Virus record (IMG/VR): IMGVR_UViG_2671180656_000012
Location: 1-13,516 of that record
Reading direction: 5' to 3' (one strand)
Length of the DNA: 13,516 bases
Source of the DNA: a virus
Taxonomy: Duplodnaviria > Heunggongvirae > Uroviricota > Caudoviricetes
Below the pieces are notes generated by a model that searched no databases, had not been told where the DNA came from, and worked only from the letters and a program-made list of their open reading frames with translations. A program made the position numbers and the translations under genes. Every line of letters begins with the position of its first letter. Position 1 is the first letter of the stretch. Of this stretch, positions 6,279 to 7,297 are shown piece after piece.

Positions 6279-7297
6279 GGGTGCGCCTCCTTGTCAGAAC
6301 CGTTCAGTCTGGAATCAACAAGTGCAGCACCAAAAACAGCATCACCTACACGGTCGTACAGTTTGCCCGCCAGCGGAGATTCAACAGCCTTAAGCATGGG
6401 ATAAAGCTGGCTTGTCCAGATTTGGTGGATTTCTCGCAAATGCAGGTATACGCCTCTGGCGTTTTGTGCGACAGATGGCATATCAGCCGCACCAACTCCT
6501 GATAAACACCTCTCCATCTGGTTAAAGGCATTGATGTATGCCTCTTTGAACCGGGCAGCACGTTTACCCGTGAAACCCATAGCAAGAAACGCAAAGCCGT
6601 CGCGGGTTATTTGATAGCAAGGTAGTTTGCGGCCTGTGCAATCGGTGTAATCACTCACCGAAAAATTGCGGGCAGTGAATGATGCGGAACATTCAAGCGT
6701 GCGGATCTTTTTCAGTACATCGTCATGACGTTTGGAGAAGAAGTTGGCAACAGCCAGGGATGAAGTAACAGCCTGACCATCAACGATGGCAATTTCAGGT
6801 TGAGTGAGGGTTGGGATCGTAGCCATGATGGCAGCCTCCGTTGACTGTGGAAAACTTCCACCACCGGAGCTGCGAAACTCACTGGTGGCAGACTGAACAG
6901 GGTTCGCAGTACCGGCGTCAACGGAGACCGGCGAGCCTTTCGGCTCCCCTGCCCAGCCCACCATAATTCTGGCGTGCGTGAGCGCGGACGATAAAAAAGA
7001 CGCTGGCGCGTCGTATATCGCCGTTGACAATTCCGGGCTGCGACCCCCGGCACCCGCTTTATAAGGTGCCTGAACAGTGTAACGTCCCGGAATTGCAGAA
7101 TCAATATGCTGGTGGCGCTTCGCACTCAACAAAATCACGACGAAACAACCATAGTGGGCTGAAGCACTCATCCGGATAAGCATCACGCAGGTAAATAACC
7201 CGCTGTGTTTCAGGCTCCCAGCGTATAACGTGGACGCGACGCCCTCTTCCATCACGGAACCAGCGATTGAGTACTTGCATGTGTTACCTGTGAGCAT
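6275..7297 (-). CDS. Rha-family phage regulatory protein (Rha domain at residues ~165-260); 340 aa if started at 7297, 184 aa if started at internal ATG 6826
   Basis: Motif TSSLAVANFFSKRHDDVLKKIRTL is typical of the Rha domain. The frame stays open for 157 codons upstream of the domain, which argues for the long form. The internal ATG at 6826 has a perfect GGAGG SD (8-nt spacer) and would put the domain at the N-terminus. Start is unresolved. Confidence 0.55.
   Translation of the reverse strand: MLTGNTCKYSIAGSVMEEGVASTLYAGSLKHSGLFTCVMLIRMSASAHYGCFVVILLSAKRHQHIDSAIPGRYTVQAPYKAGAGGRSPELSTAIYDAPASFLSSALTHARIMVGWAGEPKGSPVSVDAGTANPVQSATSEFRSSGGGSFPQSTEAAIMATIPTLTQPEIAIVDGQAVTSSLAVANFFSKRHDDVLKKIRTLECSASFTARNFSVSDYTDCTGRKLPCYQITRDGFAFLAMGFTGKRAARFKEAYINAFNQMERCLSGVGAADMPSVAQNARGVYLHLREIHQIWTSQLYPMLKAVESPLAGKLYDRVGDAVFGAALVDSRLNGSDKEAHP

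Follow-up and report, generated by a model that had tools for sequence, protein, structure and literature searches.

The segment 6827-7297 of the window, that is, of the whole 13,516-nt stretch analysed here (IMG/VR record IMGVR_UViG_2671180656_000012, a member of the Caudoviricetes), is probably the leader of an RNA immunity module of the type found in phages P4 and P1, located before a Rha-type antirepressor gene and forming with it a nested pair like eta and kil of P4. The parts of the module, their complementarity and their co-variation among relatives are directly observed, and on sequence grounds a genuine RNA module made of a putative promoter, IsrK, C4 and their targets is very likely; that translation of the long frame running across these parts is functional, which is argued by analogy, is only somewhat favoured. 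An initial annotation had described the segment as an odd N-terminal extension of Rha, and had offered a novel domain, two isoforms from alternative starts or a structured non-coding RNA as explanations. The feature is real and was correctly located, but partly mis-described, and the answer combines a structured RNA with, probably, two isoforms; the latter are plausible in view of the eta/kil precedent, of the selection that appears to act on the frame and of the junction, of a stop codon, 2 nt and an ATG, at which the long frame begins. The stop-free frame is best read as an eta-like frame kept open by selection and not as a folded domain. The relevant features are the following.

6275..7297 (-): long open reading frame (ORF) of 340 aa, in which a leader frame of the eta/'Ash' type continues in phase into Rha (ORF reading, profile search)
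7295..7302 (-): stop/start junction TAA-tt-ATG, with the same geometry as the orf88-eta junction of P4, TGA-tg-ATG
7101..7280 (-): DUF4222 gene, 59 aa, in another frame, overlapping the long ORF in its first part (Pfam, PHROG and the NCBI prokaryotic genome annotation pipeline, PGAP)
7076..7104 (-): putative isrK promoter in the position of P4 PLE, with -35 TTGATT at 7104-7099, a 17-nt spacer and -10 TACACT at 7081-7076 (proposed from conservation)
6993..7069 (-): IsrK small RNA, equivalent to P4 seqA and P1 a1/b1 (Rfam RF01394, 56.9 bits, gathering score 50)
6881..6968 (-): C4-type antisense RNA, homologue of P4 CI (Rfam RF01695, 78.8 bits, gathering score 45, full-length match 1-87)
6962..6964 (-): in-frame ATG at C4 nt 5-7, which corresponds to the start of orf45 in Gifsy-1
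6926-6917 (-): C4 b' segment CUCCGUUGAC, in the loop of hairpin 2
6909-6903 (-): C4 a' segment CUGCGAA, in the 3' single strand
6888-6883 (-): conserved CCACCA tail in the 3' part of C4, the one visible trait that bears on a possible RNase P processing of a longer transcript
6870..6876 (-): a2 target UUCGCAG, complementary to C4 a'
6835..6845 (-): b2 target, GUCAACGGAG at 6845-6836, complementary to C4 b', together with the Shine-Dalgarno (SD) sequence GGAGG at 6839-6835 that it overlaps
6275..6826 (-): short Rha-family ORF of 183 aa, the regulated antirepressor-type gene (family match, alignment of relatives)

The presence of a structured RNA in this region is strongly supported by the two Rfam matches above gathering score, by compensatory changes in the helices of both C4 and isrK, and by the co-variation of C4 with its targets. 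Sixteen distinct C4 sequences, among them P4 CI and that of Gifsy-1, were compared with the Rfam fold: the closing stem and the two hairpins are paired in 99.5% of cells, as against 33-47% in slid controls, and in 11 of the 27 pairs both partners have changed. IsrK consists of two 5' hairpins, the decoys a1 (7043-7038) and b1 (7029-7021), which reproduce target sequence complementary to C4 over 6 and 9 nt, respectively, and an intrinsic terminator (7012-6993) that was detected independently. Its hairpins are 98.6% paired and show 4 compensated pairs among relatives, a count from which the terminator was left out because two terminator variants align out of register. In the window, pairing extends over 7 nt for a':a2 and over 10 nt for b':b2, the latter overlapping GGAGG, and when the leader is folded as a single 276-nt RNA the predicted structure (-129.8 kcal/mol, z = -6.2) pairs b' with b2 in cis.

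Comparison with relatives, i.e. 80 viral contigs encoding close Rha homologues, distinguished seven types of b and five types of a sequences, occurring in 13-14 combinations. Cognate partners always form 8-10 nt of Watson-Crick pairing for b':b2 and 7 nt for a':a2, as against at most 6 nt for non-cognate ones, and a wider scan of relatives added further a and b types. The conserved module reaches from the -35 box to about eight codons inside the downstream gene, with flanks that are unrelated between relatives. Upstream, homology begins abruptly at the promoter-like element (7104-7076 in the window), whose TTGATT-17-TACACT pattern is near-invariant and marks the left edge of the module.

The reading of the frame itself agrees with what the initial annotation had reported. 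The stop-free stretch of 470 bp in phase with Rha was recovered as 471 nt with no stops, versus 5-7 stops in any one of the remaining five frames; the ATG of the long ORF (7297-7295) follows the TAA of the upstream 235-aa gene (7302-7300) after a 2-nt gap; and the internal ATG at 6826 stands 8 nt 3' of GGAGG, ahead of the Rha domain. Counted from the internal Met, the Pfam Rha domain starts after about 20 residues and TIGR02681 after about 11, with matches that place the protein in the Rha family (PF09669, E 2.8e-30, residues 178-263; TIGR02681, E 4.9e-29), and all 80 Rha relatives align from that Met, which is residue 1 of the short Rha. Public annotation shows a single protein, of 340 aa in DDBJ and of 302 aa, starting at 7183, in the PGAP annotation, where it overlaps the DUF4222 gene called by the same pipeline.

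Two further statements, that no other frame held a credible ORF and that the extension matched nothing, turned out to be wrong. DUF4222 is well supported (Pfam E 9e-13; phrog_1343 E 6e-32; annotated by PGAP), and its stop codon falls inside the putative -35 box of isrK. Residues 73-168 of the long ORF match PF10554 Phage_ASH (E 4e-17), which the Eta protein of P4 matches as well (E 4.5e-23), and the underlying DNA matches isrK and C4. The part of the window matched by Phage_ASH is the translation of isrK, C4 and the targets, evolving without codon periodicity: variable columns at codon positions 1/2/3 number 54/61/56 in the module and 41/38/98 in the adjacent Rha coding sequence. The excess of third-position changes expected of purifying selection on the amino-acid sequence is thus not found in the segment, so that it does not behave as a constrained protein domain, and the supposed novel N-terminal domain is instead the known 'Ash' region. 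What Phage_ASH captures is an open frame conserved across RNA genes, and not a proven protein domain. Besides PF10554, the NCBI name 'ash family protein' and several PHROG families have been built on the translation of isrK, C4 and targets, with regions of this kind at 6794-7081 (-) in the window and at 8168-8812 (-) in P4 (locus L085); some 'ash' copies are flagged as pseudogenes by PGAP (2031-2204 in locus L004).

The closest parallel to the locus is the immunity region of P4, in which an isrK-like and a C4-like Rfam match occur in the same order. The layout PLE - seqA - cI/CI RNA - seqC - kil, with kil nested in eta, and the logic of a1/b1, a'/b' and a2/b2 are shared, and the region from the SD to the start codon is near-identical between P4 and the window (GGAGGCUGCCAUCAUGGCUAC; GGAGGCTGCCATCATGGCTAC), as are the first codons, MAT... 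An open frame of 214 codons spans PLE, seqA, CI and seqC of P4 in frame with kil, eta being its 197-codon version, and likewise the long ORF of the window covers the putative promoter, both RNAs and the targets, is in frame with the short ORF and, as judged from geometry, begins right next to the stop codon of the gene before it. According to the summary of Forti 1999 given in PMC10111431, a constitutive promoter lies inside eta, as do CI and seqA, and Kil is a truncated form of Eta; translation of Eta itself occurs only on transcripts from an upstream promoter, by coupling to the alpA homologue, and it prevents termination. The two systems differ in other respects. The downstream gene of P4 encodes a 65-aa Kil, an Icd-like killer, whereas that of the window encodes the 183-aa Rha-type regulator, of which only the first eight codons or so are kil-like, so that a cell-division inhibitor of the Kil/Icd type is not what is made here. 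P4 is a satellite, while the present module resides in a lambdoid Stx1a prophage whose CI repressor is LexA-like; the interval from seqA to CI is longer by about 105 nt in P4, which, unlike the window, has no overlap of DUF4222 with the start of the long ORF. The output of the P4 system is Rho-dependent termination before the replication genes, for which an equivalent in the window can be proposed by analogy only.

A second parallel is found in Gifsy-1, which, like the host of the window, is a lambdoid prophage and carries, in this order, IsrK with its terminator, a C4-like RNA (STnc1160/orf45) with an AUG at C4 nt 5-7 and an antirepressor-type gene (anrP). Lysogens of Gifsy-1 transcribe both RNAs, IsrK and STnc1160, at a high level (PMC7067206). 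IsrK acts there in trans to activate translation of orf45, which is required for, and thereby activates, translation of anrP, orf45 being conserved in its nucleotides and not in its amino acids (PMC4825925, Hershko-Shalev et al. 2016); this trans-activation of downstream translation, and the binding of Hfq, have been shown for Gifsy-1 only (PMC4825925). The leader ORF of Gifsy-1, however, has 45 codons, its frame being closed by a TGA two codons 5' of its AUG, and it ends in an AUGA that overlaps the anrP start out of frame, whereas in the window the frame is open far upstream and continues in frame into Rha. The Gifsy-1 locus adjoins the Q gene, and that of the window lies between cro and the replication genes.

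The founding example of such modules is the immI operon of P1 and P7, with the order a1 b1 - c4 - a2 b2 - icd - ant, in which a' and b' of C4 pair with targets covering the ribosome-binding site (RBS) of the first downstream gene, and the end target is the antirepressor. Differences in the a and b sequences are reported to give heteroimmunity. The window shares with P1/P7 the C4 RNA family, the two recognition elements and a target placed over the RBS. In P1 it is icd that C4 blocks, its control of ant being an indirect one that works via coupling and polarity, whereas in the window the antirepressor-type gene follows the target directly and only the first eight codons or so of an Icd/Kil-like sequence have been kept. 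P1 c4 and P4 cI are treated as established RNAs in the literature (Citron & Schuster 1990 as cited in PMC8201110; summary in PMC10111431).

The second part of the argument concerns the open frame. Only 0.2% of mononucleotide shuffles of the 471-nt segment were stop-free in a given frame, and the openness is conserved in relatives, which argues for more than chance. The module measures 276, 279 or 282 nt in all of 45 unique relatives; in these, frame 0 contains no stops, and the 28 distinct stop sites all fall in frames 1 and 2, a distribution with a probability of about 1e-5 under a simple model of one in three per frame, although this figure overstates the independence of relatives that share descent. 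Indels compensate each other, as in the case of 1 nt in C4 and 2 nt downstream. A wider sample held 54 unique modules with a gene starting MAT.P or MTTLPT; every one of them is in frame, with no stop over 315 nt or more, and the C4 AUG is always separated from the ATG of the gene by a multiple of three. The first in-frame ATG is typically found about 300 nt upstream, as an ATGA overlapping the stop of an upstream gene that varies, and the window and the relatives bearing DUF4222 have the junction with a 2-nt gap instead. In L026, L035, L038, L047 and L004, moreover, no stop interrupts frame 0 over another 0.7-1.2 kb of cargo genes with 43-48% G+C, where the other frames have 3-33 stops.

The cargo is located between the upstream early gene and the module (498-1146 in L026, 81-1185 in L047, 816-1208 in L035, 1238-1684 in L004). 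It includes toxin-antitoxin-like genes on the reverse strand in L026 and L047, what by eye, and without a domain search, looks like a ProQ/FinO-type gene in L035 and L038, and two reverse-strand genes in the P4-like satellite L004. A second sense frame, at 6712-7125 (-) in the window, is also stop-free across the module and gives a 137-aa ORF with no family match; it looks incidental because the same frame has 0-6 stops in relatives. Openness across DUF4222 was considered as evidence of selection and then dropped, the same alternative frame being open where DUF4222 is unlinked to the module (L037, L051, L074).

Not all of the evidence points toward an eta-like frame of this kind, and the following observations weigh against it. 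Since the alternative frame of DUF4222 is open also when unlinked, the openness of the first 180 nt may be incidental. In modules of the Gifsy/AnrP type the long frame is closed and only an ORF of 33-45 codons is left; such modules work via the 45-codon ORF, so that far-upstream translation may be dispensable. Some Icd-type satellites constitute a counter-example, having a spacer shorter by 1 nt and a long frame that is not in phase with the short gene. As for the RNA parts, the Rfam c4-a1b1 model scores 16.2 bits in the window, below its gathering score of 46.7, which is why a1 and b1 were assigned by direct complementarity, and a1 has only 6 nt; the putative isrK promoter agrees with the consensus at 8 of 12 positions and, being below the threshold of the promoter scan, was not called. 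A search for homology between the Rha protein of the window and AnrP of Gifsy-1 found none, and an antirepressor function for the former is suggested by its family annotation.

The satellites with the shorter spacer, L094 and L125, are P4-like and have CCACATG between SD and ATG where CCATCATG is found otherwise, which puts the eta-like frame out of register with their Icd/Kil-like gene; that frame continues for 167-416 codons into downstream genes.

Of the other explanations, the one that survives best, although it is unlikely, is that the leader is purely non-coding, that only the RNAs and the 183-aa Rha matter, and that the openness is a by-product of a G+C-rich structured RNA and of shared ancestry. 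The strong constraints on the RNAs, the Gifsy-type modules without a long frame, the other sense frame that is likewise free of stops in the 279-nt module of the window, and the intrinsic openness of the alternative frame of DUF4222 are all as it would predict. It does not, on the other hand, account for the confinement of all 28 distinct stop sites to frames 1 and 2, for module lengths that are always multiples of three with compensating indels, for the 54 in-frame modules of the MAT/MTT class, for a frame that is open over 0.7-1.2 kb of unrelated cargo with a G+C content of 43-48%, or for start codons that abut upstream stops in many contexts. Nonsense mutations in P4 eta, moreover, are said to cause termination.

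It could also be the case, with a chance that appears smaller still, that only a short leader ORF is relevant, starting at ATG 6964, running in frame into Rha and activated by IsrK as in Gifsy-1, the openness farther upstream being incidental. This ATG lies 46 codons 5' of the Rha ATG in the same frame with no intervening stop, the position of the orf45-type start is conserved (AAUUAUGGUGGG), its distance to the gene in the 54 modules of the class is a multiple of three with the frame open, and the requirement of orf45 translation for anrP translation in Gifsy-1 (PMC4825925) provides a precedent. Such an ORF leaves unexplained, however, why the frame is open through isrK, the promoter and the upstream cargo and why stop-start junctions occur about 300 nt or more upstream, and no obvious SD precedes 6964.

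Very improbable, finally, is a plain fusion in which the extension would be a genuine folded 'Ash' domain of a 302-340-aa Rha antirepressor and the RNA matches would be incidental: the DDBJ and PGAP annotations, the Phage_ASH and PHROG profiles over the extension and the conserved openness of the frame fit it, but third-position excess is missing from the extension while present in Rha, specificity swaps rewrite the peptide and keep the RNA complementarity, a conserved promoter-like element and an intrinsic terminator lie inside the 'domain', the 80 relatives align from the internal Met, the same leader is found also ahead of unrelated genes, and P1 c4 and P4 cI are established RNAs.

If the eta/kil-like reading is correct, the module would work as follows. 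In a lysogen, the internal promoter (7104-7076) would give rise to IsrK, ending at its terminator, and transcripts reading through it would be processed to a stable C4, as extrapolated from P1, P4 and Gifsy-1. C4 would pair with a2 and b2, in cis or in trans, so that the Rha RBS would be occluded, initiation at 6826 blocked and the antirepressor kept off, and the untranslated RNA would probably suffer premature termination ahead of the downstream replication genes (polarity). IsrK may titrate C4 or re-fold its pairing with the targets, in which case translation could switch on. On early transcripts coming from the upstream promoter, ribosomes would enter at ATG 7297, by coupling to the upstream stop, or at ATG 6964, in the way of orf45, and in crossing the terminator, C4 and the targets they would override the RNA block. 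N-terminally extended forms of Rha, of 340 or 229 aa, would then be produced beside the 183-aa form. A PR-like early promoter 5' of cro, at 8267..8295 (-), recognised as a consensus match, is the presumed source of the transcripts that permit translation of the long ORF.

A more tentative proposal, which may be true but is not favoured, is that the frame serves as a 'ribosome conduit', selected so that translation can pass without a break between the stop codon of the early gene upstream and the regulated gene, with the amino-acid sequence left free. If this were so, the route would cross cargo (toxin-antitoxin-like genes on the reverse strand included) as well as the internal promoter, C4 and the terminator of IsrK, and early transcripts would be immune to the RNA repressor of the phage itself. 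Stop avoidance would then be imposed on alternative and antisense frames of unrelated cargo genes, and the 'Ash' family would be the footprint of that constraint and not a protein domain.

With regard to its context, the window shows 100% identity with Stx1a-converting phages of Escherichia coli O145:H28, and parts of the segment are matched in 1271 of 5426 complete E. coli genomes. The gene order is a CI-like repressor of the LexA family on the opposite strand, a cro-like gene, the 235-aa Ant-like gene, DUF4222, the RNA module, Rha, a 77-aa gene and replication genes; a scan for transfer RNA and transfer-messenger RNA genes gave no match. The 235-aa gene, at 7300-8007 (-), encodes an Ant-like regulator (phrog_63 'anti-repressor Ant', E 7e-45, with weak matches to Pfam Rha and to helix-turn-helix domains), which places two antirepressor-type genes in tandem, with the RNA switch before the second only.

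Tandem arrays of promoter, isrK, C4, target and gene were also observed, with three units in L117 and two each in L102, L103, L155, L170 and L176, at a spacing of about 656 nt in most loci and of 869 nt in L176. Each unit has its own (a,b) pair, those of L117 being CTGCGAA/CCTTGATC, ACGCCAA/CTATGTTGA and GTTCCAA/CCGTATGC, and the genes encode either 120-aa proteins with only the N-terminal part of Rha or full Rha. Spacing and context suggest that the long frames of the units start at an ATGA overlapping the stop of the preceding unit. Two variant loci were noted in addition. L011 (763-2052) is a deletion variant in which DUF4222, the promoter and most of isrK are gone and the 235-aa Ant-like gene runs on in phase into the terminator region of isrK, leaving one ORF of 429 aa that retains C4 and the targets; L039 (835-1554) has a premature stop that shortens Rha (239-aa long ORF), and may be a decaying copy.

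RNA immunity of the P4, P1 and Gifsy type is already known, and here it would control a Rha-type antirepressor. The value of the finding lies mainly in the correction of an annotation that conceals an RNA switch within one 'protein' of 302-340 aa, and in the comparative evidence for an open frame without amino-acid constraint. The same comparative data constitute a ready set of orthogonal RNA-target pairs, of at least 7 x 5 types. Antirepressors decide the timing of prophage induction, which in a Shiga-toxin phage also means toxin production, and the Rha-type antirepressor of this O145:H28 Stx1a phage would sit behind an RNA immunity switch in the style of P4 and P1, offering a natural example of a reading frame that appears to be conserved for being translated and not for the sequence that it encodes.

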